A stretch of 64,000 nt of DNA, taken from NCBI GenBank assembly GCA_038317055.1, contig JBBQBA010000001.1, positions 88,153 through 152,152 on the forward strand, in the 5' to 3' direction. A model generated the notes under the pieces. It worked only from the letters and a program-made list of their open reading frames with translations. It searched no databases and was not told the DNA's origin. This DNA comes from Candidatus Saccharimonadales bacterium (GTDB lineage Bacteria > Patescibacteriota > Saccharimonadia > Saccharimonadales > DATKHC01). Below are positions 32,466 through 39,482 of this stretch, one piece after another; position 1 is the first letter of the stretch; every line of letters begins with the position of its first letter. A program made the translations under genes and the position numbers.

Positions 32466-33509
32466 ATGAAGCCGCCAGTGAGTGAAGAAAAACCAAAAGA
32501 ACCGAACCCAACTTCAGCAAATGCTGTTATCTCTTCTAGTCCAGATTCTGATTCTGGTGAAAATAGTCTAGAAGATGCTCAAAGTAAGGATAATAGTTCT
32601 AGTACACCGACTAATGGGCAAAGTAATGAAACAGTACCAGAAAATGTAACTCCTACTAAAAAAGGATTTTTAAGTAAACTTTTAGTTATATATAAGAAGG
32701 TAGATATATATTTTCTTATTTTTATACTATTACTTGTTGTAGCTAGTATAATTGCCTACATTTCTATTCAAAAAAACCAGAATGCAAAAATTCCAAATAT
32801 ATCTTCACAATCACTAGATCAGGGTGCTTTAAAACAATTAAGCGGTAACGATACTCAGGTCGGTGGAACAAATCAGACATTAAATATTCAATCTAGTACT
32901 GTATTTAGTAATAATGTTCTTGCAAAAGGTAATCTTCAGGTTGCAGGTACACTAAAAATAGCAGGAGCATTAGTTTTGCCGGGTATAACAGTAACTGGTA
33001 TCTCAAGTTTAGGTCAGATAAATGCTGACACTCTAACCCTAACTGGTTCGGAAACCGTAAAAGGTCAATTAACCGCTAACCAAGGTTTGACTGTAAATGG
33101 CATCTCTTCGTTCGGTGGTGCAATAAATGCTCCGTCAATTAGTGTTTCAACTCTAGCGGTAAATGGTGACATAACATTCTCGCATCATATTTACGCAAAT
33201 GGCAGCATACCAAGAGTTGCTTCTGTCAGTGCTATAGGTTCAGGTGGAACGGTTTCACTTAGCGGTTCAGATAACGCAGGGAATGTAAATATAAATACTG
33301 GTTCTGGTGCGAGTGCGGGTTGTCTAGCGAATATTACTTTTTCCCAAAACTACACAGTAACTCCTTATATTCAGATCACACCAGTTGGCCAAGCGGCTGG
33401 TAATAACATTGGTTACTACATTACTCGTTCAACATCTGGTTTTAGTATTTGCGCAAACGCTCCACCATCAAACGCAGCAATGAGTTTTGATTACACGGTA
33501 ATTGGTTAG
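32466..33509 (+). CDS. Hypothetical membrane-anchored protein with low-complexity N-terminus and repetitive beta-helix-like ectodomain
   Basis: 347 aa. TM helix IYFLIFILLLVVASIIAYISI, then quasi-repeats (GNLQVAGTLKIAGALVLPGITVTGISSLGQINADTLTLTGSETVKGQLTANQGLTVNGISSFGG...). Confidence 0.45.
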   Translation: MKPPVSEEKPKEPNPTSANAVISSSPDSDSGENSLEDAQSKDNSSSTPTNGQSNETVPENVTPTKKGFLSKLLVIYKKVDIYFLIFILLLVVASIIAYISIQKNQNAKIPNISSQSLDQGALKQLSGNDTQVGGTNQTLNIQSSTVFSNNVLAKGNLQVAGTLKIAGALVLPGITVTGISSLGQINADTLTLTGSETVKGQLTANQGLTVNGISSFGGAINAPSISVSTLAVNGDITFSHHIYANGSIPRVASVSAIGSGGTVSLSGSDNAGNVNINTGSGASAGCLANITFSQNYTVTPYIQITPVGQAAGNNIGYYITRSTSGFSICANAPPSNAAMSFDYTVIG

Positions 33510-33799
33510 ACGTCTAAGAAAACAATTACCTGATTAGCTTTTACGTGCATTATAGCTTTAGAGTTTTTTATTAGGTGTTCACCCTGATTATCACGAACAT
33601 TTATTTCACCAGCATTTAATATAGTAATGAAATTATGGTGACCAGCTAAAACGTCAAACAATCCTGTATCATTTGTTGCCGTAACGCTATTAGCGACGCC
33701 ATCGTAATAGTTTTTAAATGGTGCGTAGATCTTAACGTAGATTTGTTCATTCTCAAGTTTAGGAATTTCTGTTTTTTTATCTTGGTCAGTTGCTTCCAT
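33506..33799 (-). CDS. atpC: F-type ATPase epsilon subunit, beta-sandwich only (no C-terminal helical hairpin)
   Basis: 97 aa, positioned after atpD. GLFDVLAGHHNFITIL... resembles the epsilon motif G.+GILPGH.P. The sequence stops at the end of the beta domain. Confidence 0.65.
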   Translation of the reverse strand: MEATDQDKKTEIPKLENEQIYVKIYAPFKNYYDGVANSVTATNDTGLFDVLAGHHNFITILNAGEINVRDNQGEHLIKNSKAIMHVKANQVIVFLDV

Positions 33800-33811
33800 A
33801 ATAGTTCTTTA

Positions 33812-35119
33812 TTACGCCAGTATTTCCTCAATACTTTGTAGGGTTTGGTCACGAGTAAAATAATCACCCTTATTGCCACTCGATGCTTCCATGACTGACA
33901 TGTTTTGTGTAAAGCTTTGGATTAATTTTTTAGCACGGTTATAATCTCTTCGATCTGAAACCGACAACTCGTTTTCTCCAATAATTGCAATTATATTTTT
34001 TAGTGAATTATATTTTTCTATTAAGTCTTGTACTTCAAGGCTTAATAAATAATGTCTTTCTCCTACGATTTCTGGTGTAAGTAAAGATGAGGTAGTTCTG
34101 TTTAAATCGACGGCTGGTCTAATTCCCTGTTCTGCTACTGATCGAGACAATACGATTGTTGCATCCAGTTCGTGCTGAATCATTTGTACAGAAGGATCAG
34201 ACAAATCGTCAGCAGGAACATAAATAGTTTGTACTGAAGTAATTGATCCATTTTGATTTGAAGTTAATCTATCTTGAATTATCTTCACATCAGAAAATAT
34301 TGTTGGTTCATATCCACCCTCACTTGGGACTTGGTCTAAAATTGTAGACAACTCATTTTTAGCTTGAACATAACGGTACATATTATCTGCAAAATAAAGT
34401 ATGTCTTTGTTTTTTTCATCTCTAAAATATTCAGCCATAGTTGCTGAAGCATTGGCGATTAAAGTTCGTTGAATTGGGCTTTCATTCATTTGCCCGAAAA
34501 ACATACAAGTTTGTTGAAGCAAATTATTTTCGGTTAATGTTACTAGTAGTTCGTGACCTTCTCGAATACGCTCACCAATACCAGTGAAAAACGGCATTCC
34601 AGAAGATTTTTGAGCAATATTATGTATTAGTTCCATAATTAACACAGTCTTACCAACTCCAGCGCCGCCTATAATGCCAATTTTCCTTCCCTTTACAAAA
34701 GGTGTAAAGAAATCAATCACTTTAATTCCAGTTTCAAGCATCTCCGGTTTTTTAATATCAAAGTTAGTGGGCGGAGGAGGCAAGTCAAAAATATTTCTAT
34801 ATCCAATGGTTTTAACGTCCAGCTTGGGCTTATCATCAATCGTGTCACCTACAGCGTTAAATAATCTTCCGACTACCTCATCACCAACTGGAATCGCAAT
34901 TCCATGAAAAGACCTTTCAACTACCATATTTCTCTGAATCGTTAGGTCATTGTTTAGATTTAAGCAGACGACAATTCCACCTGTTTCAATGTGATCAACT
35001 AAAAGTTGAGAGACATTTTTGTTGTTAACAACTAATATTTCATAAGGATCAGGGAAGTCATCATCAAAATGAACTTTAATAATTAACTGTGTGATTGTGT
35101 GGACTTTGCCGGAACTCAT
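33812..35119 (-). CDS. atpD: F-type ATPase beta subunit (divergent, 435 aa)
   Basis: Walker [20 protein letters not shown], Walker [12 protein letters not shown], and VPADDLSDP (canonical VPADDLTDP). Confidence 0.9.
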
Positions 35120-37987: not shown

Positions 37988-38600
37988 TTATGGCTTTTTT
38001 ATTCGATTCGAGGTTACTCAATATAAAATCTAATTGGTCATTCAAATCAATCTGATTCCCGATTGCCTCAAGAACATAATGGTTTATTACCTGCGCCATG
38101 TTCTCCTCAAAACTACCCAGTAACCGTTTTTTGTCTTTAGCTAACTGATCCATGACTTGGTGAGATAAGAGTTGTCTTTGTTGTTCAATTGCATCCTGGG
38201 TCTTATTGATTGATTCAATCGCTAAGTTTTTCGCATCAGTTATTGATTGTTCGTATTTAGAAAATTCTTCTTGAAGCTTGGCCGTTATTTCCTGCTTCAT
38301 GTATTGATTCAATTGCGAAGTAGTAAGCTGCAGATCTTGTTGCAAGAACATAGCATTATCGCTAATTATTTTTTCGAAATGGAGCCGACCTCTATTTCTT
38401 AGTTCTTCTCTAAATTCAGTATTAAAAATCTCCTTAACAGCTTCTTCTGCCGGAGCATTATATGGATCAACCGTGCTCTTAGTTTTATTGTGCGTGTGCT
38501 TATCACCGGAGTTGAGTTTAATAATTAGCAGCAATAAAACAGTAACTACGGCTGATAGTCCGATAATTATTCCTACTAATTCAATGTTCATTATGCCCAC
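37962..38600 (-). CDS. atpF: F-type ATPase b subunit-like peripheral stalk protein
   Basis: 212 aa. One N-terminal TM helix (LVGIIIGLSAVVTVLLLLII), then a long charged coiled-coil. Positioned upstream of delta. Confidence 0.55.
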   Translation of the reverse strand: MGIMNIELVGIIIGLSAVVTVLLLLIIKLNSGDKHTHNKTKSTVDPYNAPAEEAVKEIFNTEFREELRNRGRLHFEKIISDNAMFLQQDLQLTTSQLNQYMKQEITAKLQEEFSKYEQSITDAKNLAIESINKTQDAIEQQRQLLSHQVMDQLAKDKKRLLGSFEENMAQVINHYVLEAIGNQIDLNDQLDFILSNLESNKKAIIEDIIDGA

Positions 38601-38609
38601 CCATCATAG

Positions 38610-39482
38610 TCACACTTTCAGGAGTAAATATACTCCAAATACCGATGATATAAAAATTATTAACGCTAATAAAACTACTTGAATAAAACCTTTTGTAATG
38701 GCTTTTTTGGATAATGGATTTCGACCAATGGATATTAAGCTACTCCGCGCAGCACCATATAACATAGTTCCAGCCATGATTGATGCAATCGCAATAACTG
38801 AAACACCCAACCATATACGCCATGCAGTTACACTTTTTCCGGTAATTGTTCTACTGAATTGTTCCAATACTCGTGGAACTCCGCTATTGCTAGATACAAG
38901 AAGAGGGTTATGACCAATTGATATATTCGAACTAACTAACCCAATATGAACTGTTACGGTGCCACTAGAAGTTTTAATTTTTTCGGTGCTAATTATTGGA
39001 CTACTGTTATTAAAACTAGCGAGTGCTTGTGCTATCACAATCGGCGCAGAAGAATTAGTCTTCATAGCTATTCCATCTAGAGAAGAAACAGTTAAATAGT
39101 TCCCGGCTGATATTGGACCATTTTGATCACTAACCAAAACATTATAATGTCCATTATTAGCTACAAATACTGCACTTCCAGTTTTTGTACTATCTTGGAT
39201 TGCAATTGCTGCATTAGCTGAATTAACAATAATACCAAAAGTGCCATAAATATTATCTTGACTTGCTGGAATAACGGATGTTGCATCTCCTTTTGCAAGT
39301 TGAACTATCATGCCGTTTTGTAGATTAGCAGAAGTAGAGTAACTTTGAATGAATGTATTTGGAACCGGAAACGTAGGAGATGCAGCAGAGGAATGATGAA
39401 CGGTCAGCAAAAAAACAATTAGCAACGTAAAAGTAGCTAACAGATACAATACTCTTGAACTACTTTGTTTTGTTTTTTGCAT
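38610..39482 (-). CDS. Hypothetical secreted protein with C-terminal two-helix hairpin resembling an ATPase c subunit (no ion-binding carboxylate)
   Basis: 290 aa. Signal peptide, ~190-aa ectodomain, then ...IASIMAGTMLYGAARSSLISIGRNPLSKKAITKGFIQVVLLALIIFISSVFGVYLLLKV (compare the c-subunit loop G.ARQPE). It is the first gene of the atp operon. Confidence 0.45.
   Translation of the reverse strand: MQKTKQSSSRVLYLLATFTLLIVFLLTVHHSSAASPTFPVPNTFIQSYSTSANLQNGMIVQLAKGDATSVIPASQDNIYGTFGIIVNSANAAIAIQDSTKTGSAVFVANNGHYNVLVSDQNGPISAGNYLTVSSLDGIAMKTNSSAPIVIAQALASFNNSSPIISTEKIKTSSGTVTVHIGLVSSNISIGHNPLLVSSNSGVPRVLEQFSRTITGKSVTAWRIWLGVSVIAIASIMAGTMLYGAARSSLISIGRNPLSKKAITKGFIQVVLLALIIFISSVFGVYLLLKV

Follow-up and report, generated by a model that had tools for sequence, protein, structure and literature searches.

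Bacterial atp operons normally start with atpB-atpE, whose products a and c make up the ion path, and c subunits contact gamma and epsilon at their cytoplasmic loop. Two described systems depart from this plan and are close to the locus reported here. An atypical 'ATP synthase operon' of WWE3/OP11 was remarked on in passing by Kantor et al. 2013 (mBio, PMC3812714), where a transmembrane protein common to the WWE3/OP11 operons was called 'putative c', three genes were assumed to encode a, b and c, and the function was left open. Beyond that mention, no published characterisation of the variant operon was found in the literature. The second system is the F1-like X0 ATPases of mycoplasmas, Type 2 (gliding motor) and Type 3 (MIB-MIP antibody-cleavage system), which provide a precedent for an F1 that is coupled to a protein with signal peptide, ectodomain and two TM helices and powers extracellular work (Beven 2012, PMC3369863; Berlureau 2026, PMC12994834).

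Gene order and distribution of the operon

The window (the whole stretch of DNA analysed, 64 kb of a 491,555-bp contig) carries seven same-direction, partly overlapping genes on the minus strand at 33506-39482. Their order is 290-aa protein, b-like, delta, alpha, gamma, beta, epsilon, with 4-nt overlaps at delta/alpha, alpha/gamma and gamma/beta. The features are as follows.

39546-40784, cysteine desulfurase, ending 63 nt upstream of the operon (Pfam Aminotran_5)
38610-39482, minus strand, gene of the 290-aa 'ecto-c' fusion protein, first in the operon (ORF; exact NCBI-called product P0001)
39381-39482, minus strand, predicted signal peptide, about residues 1-34 (sequence reading, family alignment A1, AF2)
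38838-39380, minus strand, predicted extracellular beta-sandwich domain, about residues 35-215 (AF2, Foldseek, weak Pfam)
38613-38837, minus strand, predicted C-terminal two-helix membrane hairpin, subunit-c-derived (AF2, PDB fold matches, hhalign)
37962-38591, minus strand, b-like putative peripheral-stalk protein, 209 aa (architecture and operon position)
37472-37972, minus strand, delta/OSCP subunit, about 166 aa (family profile against PDB)
35970-37475, minus strand, alpha subunit, 501 aa (Pfam ATP-synt_ab, 1e-63)
35116-35973, minus strand, gamma subunit, 285 aa (Pfam ATP-synt, 8e-27)
33812-35119, minus strand, beta subunit, catalytic, 435 aa (Pfam ATP-synt_ab, 6e-63)
33506-33799, minus strand, epsilon subunit, 97 aa, beta-sandwich only (Pfam ATP-synt_DE_N, 1e-12)

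The coordinates, lengths, order and overlaps given in the original prediction held on re-examination, including the beta length and the position of the cysteine desulfurase; two gene starts were revised. The b-like gene, earlier placed at 37962-38600, was moved to the ATG at 38591; the resulting protein is identical to NCBI-called product P0408, and the homologue alignment supports this start. For delta, formerly started at TTG 37987 (which remains an alternative), the ATG at 37972 is the most likely start, as its 11-nt overlap equals the family median.

Conservation of the operon order extended to 138 or more Saccharibacteria species and also to CPR lineages of the WWE3 type. Among 80 species-level loci, all those that were sufficiently long kept the seven-gene order except L075, and four further CPR lineages carry the same architecture; the variant rotary ATPase occurs widely among Saccharibacteria and in other ultra-small bacteria of the CPR. 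Its beta subunits were shown to be monophyletic: all 11 context-verified variant operons formed one clade in the beta tree (NJ bootstrap 78/100), separate from the canonical and mycoplasma betas (88/100).

F1 subunits and peripheral stalk

All F1 subunits fell under their NCBIfam equivalog cut-offs, with alpha at 377 bits (TIGR00962, cut-off 484), gamma at 70 bits (TIGR01146, cut-off 194) and beta at 440 bits (TIGR01039, cut-off 463). Beta identity was 60–68% across species with the variant operon, only 39–48% to the nearest betas outside the family and 39–43% to canonical betas. The beta motifs, namely Walker A GGAGVGKT (residue 151), GIGERIRE (180), DNMYR (245), YVPADD (300) and GENELSVSD (381), were conserved family-wide, and the catalytic motifs were kept in 63 of the 64 full-length betas. 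In alpha, the P-loop GDSKSGKST (residue 178), ITDGQ and the Arg-finger motif SVTRIG were found; the Arg finger was present in 57 of the 73 alphas scanned, some of which are cut at contig ends. The P-loop had been called atypical in the original prediction. It is present as described but is not special to this operon, given that the canonical CPR operon L085 has GDRKLGKST. The same applies to the truncated epsilon: its Pfam match spans only residues 22-95, the beta-sandwich domain, and no C-terminal helical domain was found in the Pfam search (family lengths 88–134 aa, median 103), but the L085 epsilon has just 76 aa. With the catalytic motifs intact, the F1 head and stalk look functional.

The delta family profile, searched against the PDB, gave ATP synthase delta/OSCP for all of the top 17 matches (E. 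coli 5t4o_L, E 1.2e-4), and the single sequence gave weak matches to OSCP and NF004402; on this profile evidence delta is a true OSCP homologue. The b-like protein showed no significant sequence match to b, so its assignment rests on architecture and operon position. In the AF2 model, an N-terminal TM helix (3-27) is followed by a linker, a long helix (58-178, about 120 residues) and a C-terminal helix (184-207), as expected for a b-like component of the peripheral stalk. The family comprises 5,422 proteins, and its identity of 55–71% across species is unusually high, far above the conservation of ordinary b subunits.

These data bear on whether the operon might be a decaying, functionless relic of an ATP synthase operon. 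CPR genomes are reductive, and a, the c carboxylate and the epsilon C-terminal domain have all been lost. Against such decay, all seven ORFs are intact, with overlaps of the translational-coupling type, the catalytic motifs are invariant, thousands of intact homologues exist, with the b-like and beta identities given above, and the hairpin loop is invariant (see below). This conservation effectively refutes the relic explanation, to which we assign a negligible probability.

The 290-aa protein in the place of a and c

No a-subunit gene lies in or beside the operon, as originally predicted: the six-frame ORFs of the window gave no a or c subunit in phmmer searches with E. coli a and c and Bacillus PS3 c, and tblastn of the window with a canonical CPR atpI/a/c/b set gave no a or c match. 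Nor was any a, c or atpI gene found within 10 kb of the operon at the 84 related loci searched. The companion claim, that a c subunit is missing, holds for a free-standing gene but not for the last 75 residues of the 290-aa protein, which fold and profile matches identify as a c-derived hairpin.

The two hairpin helices in the AF2 model (220-254 and 256-289) had F-type c subunits as best PDB fold matches (6fkf_G, 3v3c and 8jr0_1, TMt 0.76; probability 0.93–0.99), although the helical hairpin is a simple fold, and structural matches to c subunits are obtained with other hairpin proteins too. The combined-family hairpin profile aligned with nine c subunits over 68 columns, RNP upon RQP (hhalign, E 1.1e-5), with a score of 31.4 against at most 16.4 for reversed and shuffled controls. 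The WWE3-type profile alone gave E 2.7e-5, the Saccharibacteria-type profile alone was marginal (E 0.012), and comparison with Pfam subunit c stayed under significance (best E 0.26). The loop S-I-G-R-N-P-L-S-K-K is invariant, the hairpin equals subunit c in length and topology, and in 241 sequences RNP is followed by 34 aa, the same number as in c subunits. In JGI annotation, several WWE3-type homologues are named 'ATP synthase membrane subunit c'. None of the 241 family members has a mid-membrane Asp or Glu, and the carboxylate position (P+18) is occupied by Leu/Val or Phe/Ile. Model and profile together indicate that the C-terminus is a hairpin derived from subunit c without its ion-binding carboxylate.

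At P+12/13 a polar residue is conserved: Gln in 87%, Glu in roughly 8% of the Saccharibacteria type, and Asn in the WWE3 type. This gives slight room for ion binding of an unconventional kind. An Arg about 8–12 residues ahead of the loop is also conserved and forms a polar pair with the Gln/Asn 12–13 residues after it. It could be supposed that this helix 2 residue and the helix 1 Arg bind an ion, with the b-like protein as a stator path replacing a; the Glu variants, the retained peripheral stalk and the exceptional conservation of the b-like protein would fit. However, the polar residues lie close to where the hydrophobic span meets the cytoplasm rather than mid-membrane, Gln and Asn are not protonatable, the b-like protein has a single, poorly conserved TM helix without a conserved Arg in the homologue alignment, and none of the five operon subfamilies encodes a half-channel-forming polytopic protein. 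We regard this reading as unlikely, if the least unlikely of the alternatives.

Given that only the 64-kb window of the source genome was searched, the remainder may contain canonical a and c genes or a further operon. Ordinary atpB and atpE genes at a distance could then join the F1 and stalk in a normal ATP synthase, with the 290-aa protein as an assembly or anchoring accessory, and some Saccharibacteria such as Southlakia do own canonical a and c. The Southlakia operon, however, is complete with its own F1 at a different locus, and its syntenic CysDes-MnmA site holds no ATPase genes. Likewise, a complete WWE3 genome was described with the variant operon only, as 'the ATP synthase operon' (Kantor 2013, PMC3812714). 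Simple fragmentation, one of two options in the original prediction, also fails to explain why the atpB-atpE slot holds a conserved, carboxylate-free, c-derived protein with an invariant loop that would face gamma and epsilon, across 138 or more species and further CPR classes, or why the F1 genes, all below the equivalog cut-offs, form a clade apart from canonical CPR enzymes. We consider it quite improbable, and subunit a is presumably absent from the whole genome. The other option, an F1-stalk assembly working with a non-canonical membrane partner, is supported by the fusion protein in that slot. Absence of the 290-aa protein from this position in relatives had been named as contrary evidence; the protein is present there, since the arrangement is kept in related loci and other CPR lineages.

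The 290-aa protein has at least 473 homologues, all named 'hypothetical', and no Pfam or NCBIfam family was assigned to it. The first protein of the WWE3-type operon is homologous over its full length (hhalign 99.8%, E 2e-29). The AF2 model (pLDDT 82.8) begins with a helix (8-30) and a low-confidence linker, in agreement with a signal peptide (K/R-rich start, hydrophobic core, ...SSA|AS) that would be cleaved. The strands of the ectodomain (44-191, pLDDT about 85–93), with the conserved motif NGxIxxGDYITxSSxxGIGMK, matched phage capsid cement proteins (8hdt_G, E 1e-4; 9ocb_K; 5wk1_K) and phage preneck-appendage/tail-fibre proteins (E about 1e-8) in Foldseek, and Phage_cement and XM1_gp53 weakly in Pfam. 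The ectodomain is therefore predicted to be a beta-sandwich with a phage cement/tail-appendage fold.

Such a fold, typical of oligomeric phage structural proteins, might also suit a non-rotary export or assembly machine, in which a pore or platform is built from the hairpin-ectodomain protein and the F1-like ATPase supplies the energy for translocating or assembling surface components, like FliI/FliH/FliJ in type III export. F1 and T3SS ATPases are homologous, FliI/SctN matches were listed in the NCBIfam search, and the 11-kb block that includes the operon also encodes wall-associated surface proteins and a bactofilin-like membrane protein. That neighbourhood is not present at the WWE3-type loci examined, though, and no export-gate homologues are present. 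Heterohexameric alpha/beta with gamma, epsilon, delta and b is a full rotary set, and F-type models scored 2–3 times as high as FliI/SctN. An export machine seems even less probable than fragmentation.

Proposed motor and comparison with known systems

We propose, with a probability of about 0.55, that the operon is complete and encodes a distinct CPR/Patescibacteria-specific offshoot of the F-type rotary ATPases, an ATP-driven motor that rotates a ring of extracellular domains and is uncoupled from ion transport. A catalytically competent alpha3beta3 head, a central stalk (gamma, epsilon) and a peripheral stalk (delta/OSCP and the b-like protein) would be kept, and the 290-aa protein alone would take the place of the ion-translocating Fo pair. 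After signal-peptide cleavage, its beta-sandwich domain of about 170 residues would be exposed on the outward-facing side of the membrane, anchored by the c-derived hairpin with the invariant G-R-N-P loop toward the cytoplasm. Because the hairpin has no membrane carboxylate and subunit a is presumably absent, the motor could neither move H+ or Na+ by the Fo mechanism nor synthesise ATP from an ion gradient. ATP hydrolysis would instead drive gamma-epsilon to turn the hairpin ring against the b-like/delta stator, and the ectodomain crown would pass torque or a conformational cycle to an external target, for example the wall, a surface protein or a contact with a host. Against this reading, no precedent is known for a peripheral stalk retained in the absence of subunit a, and its stator partner in the membrane is not defined. 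Since a rotor-like hairpin without an ion-binding residue is joined to an outside-facing domain, ATP is probably spent on work at the cell surface, as in the mycoplasma systems, where its hydrolysis does work outside the cell.

The canonical F1Fo enzyme (atpIBEFHAGDC, e.g., Southlakia epibionticum SEML1_0349-0358) shares with the window operon alpha3beta3-gamma-epsilon with all catalytic motifs, delta/OSCP, a b-type stalk protein, the order b-delta-alpha-gamma-beta-epsilon and a c-type hairpin with an R-N/Q-P loop. It differs in having subunit a and a free c; the window hairpin lacks the GxGxGxG packing motif as well as the ion-binding Asp/Glu and is fused to a signal peptide and ectodomain, and the window F1 is set apart by its scores and beta clade.

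N-type (alternate F1Fo) ATPases are likewise a second divergent F-type lineage found beside or in place of the canonical enzyme. They keep a and c with the carboxylate, have no delta, and carry atpQ/atpR in a different gene order. The window subunits scored far under the TIGR03305/03324/03323 cut-offs. The flagellar/T3SS export ATPase FliI-FliH-FliJ, a distant F1 homologue, also has a b/delta-like stalk (FliH) and works without an ion-driven a/c pair, but it is a homohexamer without an alpha/beta pair, epsilon or a c-like ring.

Mycoplasma F1-like X0 ATPases resemble the window operon in that alpha, beta, gamma and epsilon are encoded in a cluster of seven genes, a and c with charged TM residues are missing, and a partner has a signal peptide, a large ectodomain and two C-terminal TM helices. 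Both occur in genome-reduced, host-dependent bacteria. In contrast, their clusters lack b and delta and differ in gene order, their two-TM hairpin has no G-R-N-P loop, and their 12-TM and DUF2714 proteins are missing from the window operon. Neither alpha nor beta of the window reached the cut-offs of MSC_0618/0619 and MMOB1660/1670, and the window and mycoplasma betas belong to different clades; by these comparisons the resemblance is analogous, not orthologous.

The WWE3/OP11 operon has the same seven-gene architecture and a first protein ('putative c') homologous over its full length to that of the window. The three genes assumed by Kantor et al. 2013 to encode a, b and c are now read as a carboxylate-free c-derived ecto-fusion, a b-like protein and delta, with no a, and the system is extended to Saccharibacteria, where it is represented in 138 or more species and by some 5,400 b-like sequences.

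Organization of the operon and its F1 and stalk subunits

The ATPase operon was found to comprise seven genes on the minus strand, listed here in the order of transcription:

38610-39482, minus strand: gene of the 290-aa protein, referred to below as the fusion protein (290 aa, ORF)
37962-38591, minus strand: b-like gene (209 aa; ATG at 38591, exact database product P0408)
37472-37972 (or to 37987), minus strand: delta-like gene (about 166 aa)
35970-37475, minus strand: alpha gene (501 aa)
35116-35973, minus strand: gamma gene (285 aa)
33812-35119, minus strand: beta gene (435 aa)
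33506-33799, minus strand: epsilon gene (97 aa)

The genes overlap by 4 nt at each of the delta/alpha, alpha/gamma and gamma/beta junctions, and a class-V aminotransferase gene (cysteine desulfurase) ends 63 nt upstream of the operon. The layout, the overlaps, the desulfurase spacing and the lack of an a or free c gene were all as described in the original prediction, whereas its start codons for the b-like and delta genes had to be revised. Mechanical ORF calls began these two genes at GTG 38600 and TTG 37987, respectively. Homologue alignments and the database product place the b-like start at ATG 38591, and for delta ATG 37972 is the probable start, consistent with the 11-nt median overlap of the family. 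Scanning for promoters and terminators revealed sites no more numerous than in shuffles.

Alpha, beta, gamma and epsilon gave strong matches to the F1 Pfam families, such as ATP-synt for gamma (8e-27) and ATP-synt_DE_N for epsilon (1e-12), the latter protein being without the C-terminal helices. In beta, Walker A, the catalytic GERxRE, Walker B, the adenine-pocket YVPADD and a DELSEED-like loop are all kept, and alpha carries the P-loop GDSKSGKST, ITDGQ and the Arg finger SVTRIG. The catalytic alpha/beta motifs are conserved throughout the family; that the operon is a relic is hardly credible. The unusual alpha P-loop and truncated epsilon to which attention had been drawn are both present, but they are not unique to the variant (an operon without a or free c), given that a canonical CPR operon (L085) shares the short epsilon and a 'GK(S/T)T' alpha P-loop. 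The epsilon of the canonical operon of Southlakia epibionticum is full length.

When the delta family profile was searched against the PDB, the top 17 matches were delta/OSCP proteins, including E. coli delta and mitochondrial OSCP (best E 1.2e-4). The b-like protein gave no Pfam ATP-synt_B match, and no relative was found in PDB sequence or Foldseek searches. In its AF2 model, a single TM helix is connected by a linker to an unbroken helix of ~120 residues, after which comes a terminal helix; this predicted architecture, together with the operon position, would fit a b subunit. Moreover, the protein is unusually conserved (55-71% identity between species; 5,422 homologues). Judged from sequence, the operon encodes an F-type derivative in which F1 and both stalks appear intact.

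The fusion protein and subunits a and c

At least 473 proteins of Saccharimonadia/Patescibacteria, annotated as 'hypothetical', make up the family of the fusion protein. According to the family alignment, it has three parts: a signal peptide, an ectodomain in which the motif NGxIxxGDYITxSSxxGIGMK is kept, and a C-terminal pair of hydrophobic helices, which are very conserved and joined by the invariant loop S-I-G-R-N-P-L-S-K-K. In the AF2 model (pLDDT 82.8), a beta-rich domain spans residues 44-191 and the hairpin residues 220-254 and 256-289. The ectodomain was matched by Foldseek to phage capsid cement proteins (Pam3 8hdt_G, Sf11, TW1), as well as to phage preneck-appendage/tail-fibre domains (E about 1e-8). 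A non-rotary role in export or assembly, considered here beside these phage matches and the retained F1 and stalk genes, is improbable.

The best Foldseek matches of the hairpin were F-type c subunits (TM-score to target 0.64-0.76, prob 0.93-0.99). Because the hairpin is a simple fold, sequence profiles were tested as well. When 69 non-redundant hairpins were compared with nine c subunits by hhalign, the two aligned end to end over 68 columns (E 1.1e-5), with R-N-P placed on R-Q-P; the real comparison scored 31.4, against 12.3 for the reversed alignment and at most 16.4 for 30 column-shuffled alignments. The signal was due mainly to the WWE3-type subfamily (E 2.7e-5); for the Saccharibacteria-type taken by itself it was marginal (E 0.012). 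Since the first proteins of the two subfamilies are homologous over their whole length (hhalign E 2e-29), the link between hairpin and subunit c is transitive for the Saccharibacteria-type. The Pfam ATP-synt_C model gave no significant match to the hairpins; several WWE3-type members have been named 'ATP synthase membrane subunit c' by JGI, independently. Subunit c has its N-terminus outside, its loop inside and its C-terminus outside, and the hairpin topology fits this arrangement. Given this c-like topology and an N-terminal extension that follows a signal peptide, the ectodomain is placed outside the cell.

Where c subunits have the ion-binding Asp/Glu (loop Pro + 18), Leu/Val or Phe/Ile was found in 241 of the 241 sequences examined. 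The sole conserved polar residue of helix 2 is a Gln, rarely Glu, or an Asn, near the cytoplasmic end. As far as these residues indicate, the fusion protein is a c-derived hairpin with an ectodomain and is predicted to be unable to bind the coupling ion. Unconventional ion transport, to be weighed against the same residues, is fairly unlikely. At the position equivalent to Gln268 (loop Pro + 12), Glu was observed in about 8% of the Saccharibacteria-type sequences, including the database proteins P0002 and P0007, which are the closest relatives of the window protein, and the WWE3-type proteins have Asn one position after it. A conserved Arg lies in helix 1 at a depth similar to that of the helix-2 Gln/Glu/Asn; the Arg and the polar residue may pair for structural reasons or be left over from a binding site.

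No subunit a or free c was found among the ORFs of any frame in the 64-kb window. Subunit a was not found within 10 kb of the operon in 84 related loci, nor in the contexts of four other variant operons, and a second alpha/beta, a, c or atpI was absent within 10 kb in the 80 loci retained from the genome scan. Fragmentation, with canonical a and c genes elsewhere in the genome, was one of the two explanations offered by the original prediction and is distinctly unlikely; a complete canonical operon in the same genome would be compatible with the ATP-driven ring proposed below. The other explanation, a non-canonical membrane partner, pointed in the right direction; the operon encodes a c-derived hairpin-ectodomain protein without the carboxylate, and no a lies nearby.

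Distribution, phylogeny and genomic setting

By genome scan, the hairpin motif was found in at least 138 species-level genomes, and 80 of the 138 loci were kept for comparison. Most of the 80 are labelled Saccharibacteria/Saccharimonadia, and the rest 'Patescibacteria group', 'bacterium' or 'uncultured bacterium'. A typical Saccharibacteria-type operon was observed in a 'Candidatus Limnocylindria' (Chloroflexota) MAG (L010, DATHJH010000036.1), the contig of which is probably mis-binned. The seven-gene order was the same in the 80 loci wherever the contig was long enough, with the exception of L075. At this Saccharimonadia locus (DATIHM010000044.1; L075:1817-4392), the fusion gene is followed by a 41-nt gap and then by alpha, with no b-like or delta gene in the operon, an arrangement that is either a real variant lacking the stalk or an artefact of the assembly.

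The closest betas from outside the family show just 39-48% identity. When the genomic contexts around neighbouring betas were sampled, four more variant operons were found (L082/L083, L084, L088 and L089), with a first protein of 255-290 aa and the same design, a b-like protein of 157-253 aa and a weak-OSCP protein of 152-162 aa, followed by alpha, gamma, beta and a short epsilon. One sampled context, L085, is the canonical operon atpI-a-c-b-alpha-gamma-beta-epsilon. Unlike at the other loci, the epsilon of L089 (108 aa, ATP-synt_DE_N; L089:11381-11707, minus strand) was called on the opposite strand directly after beta. An 864-kb contig of candidate division WWE3 encodes one homologue of the fusion protein. 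A neighbour-joining tree built from 60 betas placed all context-verified variant betas in one clade (bootstrap 78/100), apart from the betas of mycoplasma Type 3, planctomycetes and canonical CPR operons (bootstrap 88/100). Mycoplasma Type 3 as the sister group of the variant was rejected by this tree. The Type 3 betas of L086 (Mesomycoplasma lagogenitalium CP122979.1) and L087 (Mollicutes bacterium PWAP), with 39% identity to the window beta, are among its best 150 representatives, yet fall outside the CPR variant clade.

The window and Southlakia epibionticum have in common the block MetRS-TatD-two small ORFs-cysteine desulfurase ... MnmA-AlaRS-PilM-like. YdcF alone lies between the cysteine desulfurase and MnmA in Southlakia (SEML1_0658-0664), and its place is taken in the window by an 11-kb block (28403-39482). 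Besides the ATPase operon, this block encodes a bactofilin-like membrane protein, in convergent orientation, and three or four proteins predicted to lie at the surface; it looks as though all of these had been inserted as a single island. The complete canonical operon of Southlakia sits at another locus and the desulfurase-MnmA site there holds YdcF alone; for this reason, local decay of a Southlakia-type operon was rejected as the origin of the variant. The neighbours of the operon within the block are as follows:

32466-33509, plus strand: bactofilin-like protein (347 aa; N-terminal TM helix, weak bactofilin-like beta-helix region)
29418-32347 and 28403-29341, minus strand: secreted/wall-associated protein cluster (predicted surface proteins)

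The bactofilin-like gene converges on epsilon, with ends overlapping by 4 nt; it was found in 56 relatives, in 55 of which it lay next to the operon in convergent orientation, and it was not present in WWE3-type loci. Within the surface cluster, the 330-aa protein contains a WxL-interacting peptidoglycan-binding domain and the 312-aa protein a PKD domain, and the 355-aa and 265-aa proteins matched no family. The 330-, 355- and 265-aa proteins are kept downstream of the operon in ~50 relatives. Elsewhere in the window, a stretch of raised G+C (51007-57372, minus strand; 0.39-0.41 vs about 0.36) carries genes for a DUF2779 protein, an 896-aa ResIII helicase and a 729-aa N6/N4 DNA methylase, and has the appearance of a type III restriction-modification island.

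Proposed mechanism and comparison with known ATPases

The favoured reading, to which we assign a probability of roughly 55%, is an F-type derivative with an ATP-driven hairpin ring under gamma/epsilon and an ectodomain crown that transmits work outward. The hairpins would form a ring beneath gamma/epsilon, a contact proposed because the hairpin loop is invariant. ATP hydrolysis would rotate the ring relative to the b-like/delta stator, the retained peripheral stalk suggesting that torque is still resisted in the membrane, and the ectodomain crown would pass the work to the outside. More tentatively, the operon may represent a new class of rotary machine in which ion coupling has been lost and ATP spins or cyclically drives a membrane ring bearing phage-cement-like domains on the outside, and which in many CPR lineages would be the only 'ATP synthase'. 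If so, mechanical energy would be exported to the surface of episymbiotic CPR, e.g. for host attachment, wall/surface-layer remodelling or movement, and those CPR would be without the complex V interconversion of ATP and ion gradients, contrary to metabolic reconstructions.

CPR/Patescibacteria account for a large share of bacterial diversity, their respiratory chains are mostly missing, and the retention of 'F-type ATP synthases' among them is a standing puzzle. For the bioenergetics of CPR, the consequences of the variant are clear. If neither a nor an ion-binding c ring exists in a large, monophyletic subset of these enzymes, ATP/PMF interconversion is wrong in the metabolic reconstructions of those lineages, and an F-type scaffold would have been adapted, in a development separate from that of the mycoplasma F1-like X0 ATPases, to send ATP energy across the membrane to an ectodomain ring. 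It would then be the second natural case of a rotary ATPase serving as a mechanical motor, would be a candidate for a part of the epibiotic lifestyle, and would allow torque transmission without ion coupling to be studied in a compact system. The operon is a barely noticed, widespread CPR rotary ATPase variant with a structurally novel membrane sector, and there is a substantial chance that it is a mechanically novel machine. Kantor et al. (2013; PMC3812714) noted that the putative c of a WWE3 operon is similar to a TM protein encoded in OP11/WWE3 operons, without settling direction or ion; nothing beyond that paper was found in the literature on the variant system in Saccharibacteria/CPR, and CPR ATPases are counted simply as complex V in a 2026 review.

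When scored against NCBIfam equivalog models, the subunits fell below the cut-offs (alpha 377 against 484, beta 440 against 463, gamma 70 against 194, epsilon 37 against 67 and delta 16 against 57). The alpha/beta scores against the mycoplasma F1-like families were 257, 372, 310 and 320 bits (cut-offs 520, 570, 600 and 850), and against the N-type alt_F1F0 families the operon reached 381, 294 and 26 bits (cut-offs 752, 750 and 282); the operon subunits miss both sets by more than they miss the cut-offs for genuine F1Fo. The catalytic alpha3beta3 motifs, gamma/epsilon and delta/OSCP are shared with canonical F1Fo, whereas the a subunit (5-6 TM, essential Arg) and the c Asp/Glu of that enzyme are both lacking at the locus. 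N-type ATPases have atpQ/atpR and no delta, unlike the window operon, which has a delta.

The closest functional analogy is provided by the mycoplasma F1-like X0 ATPases, seven-gene clusters encoding F1-like alpha/beta/gamma/epsilon and a signal-peptide/ectodomain/two-TM protein, which are needed for gliding (Type 2) or extracellular MIB-MIP antibody cleavage (Type 3) (PMC3369863; PMC12994834). The mycoplasma partner and the fusion protein share one architecture, in which a signal peptide and an ectodomain are followed at the C-terminus by two TM helices without charged residues. Homology of the Type 3 protein-5 hairpin to the hairpin of the fusion protein was rejected by inspection, as it has no G-R-N-P loop. 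Mycoplasma Type 2/3 systems have a 12-TM protein 1 and a cytoplasmic protein 2 (UU048, DUF2714), neither of which is encoded in the window operon, and they have no b or delta, whereas the window operon has a b-like protein and delta. The CPR variant operon of the WWE3/OP11 type (Kantor 2013), in which alpha-gamma-beta-epsilon follow three genes without recognisable a/b/c homology and the first of the three encodes a shared TM protein, is matched by the window operon.
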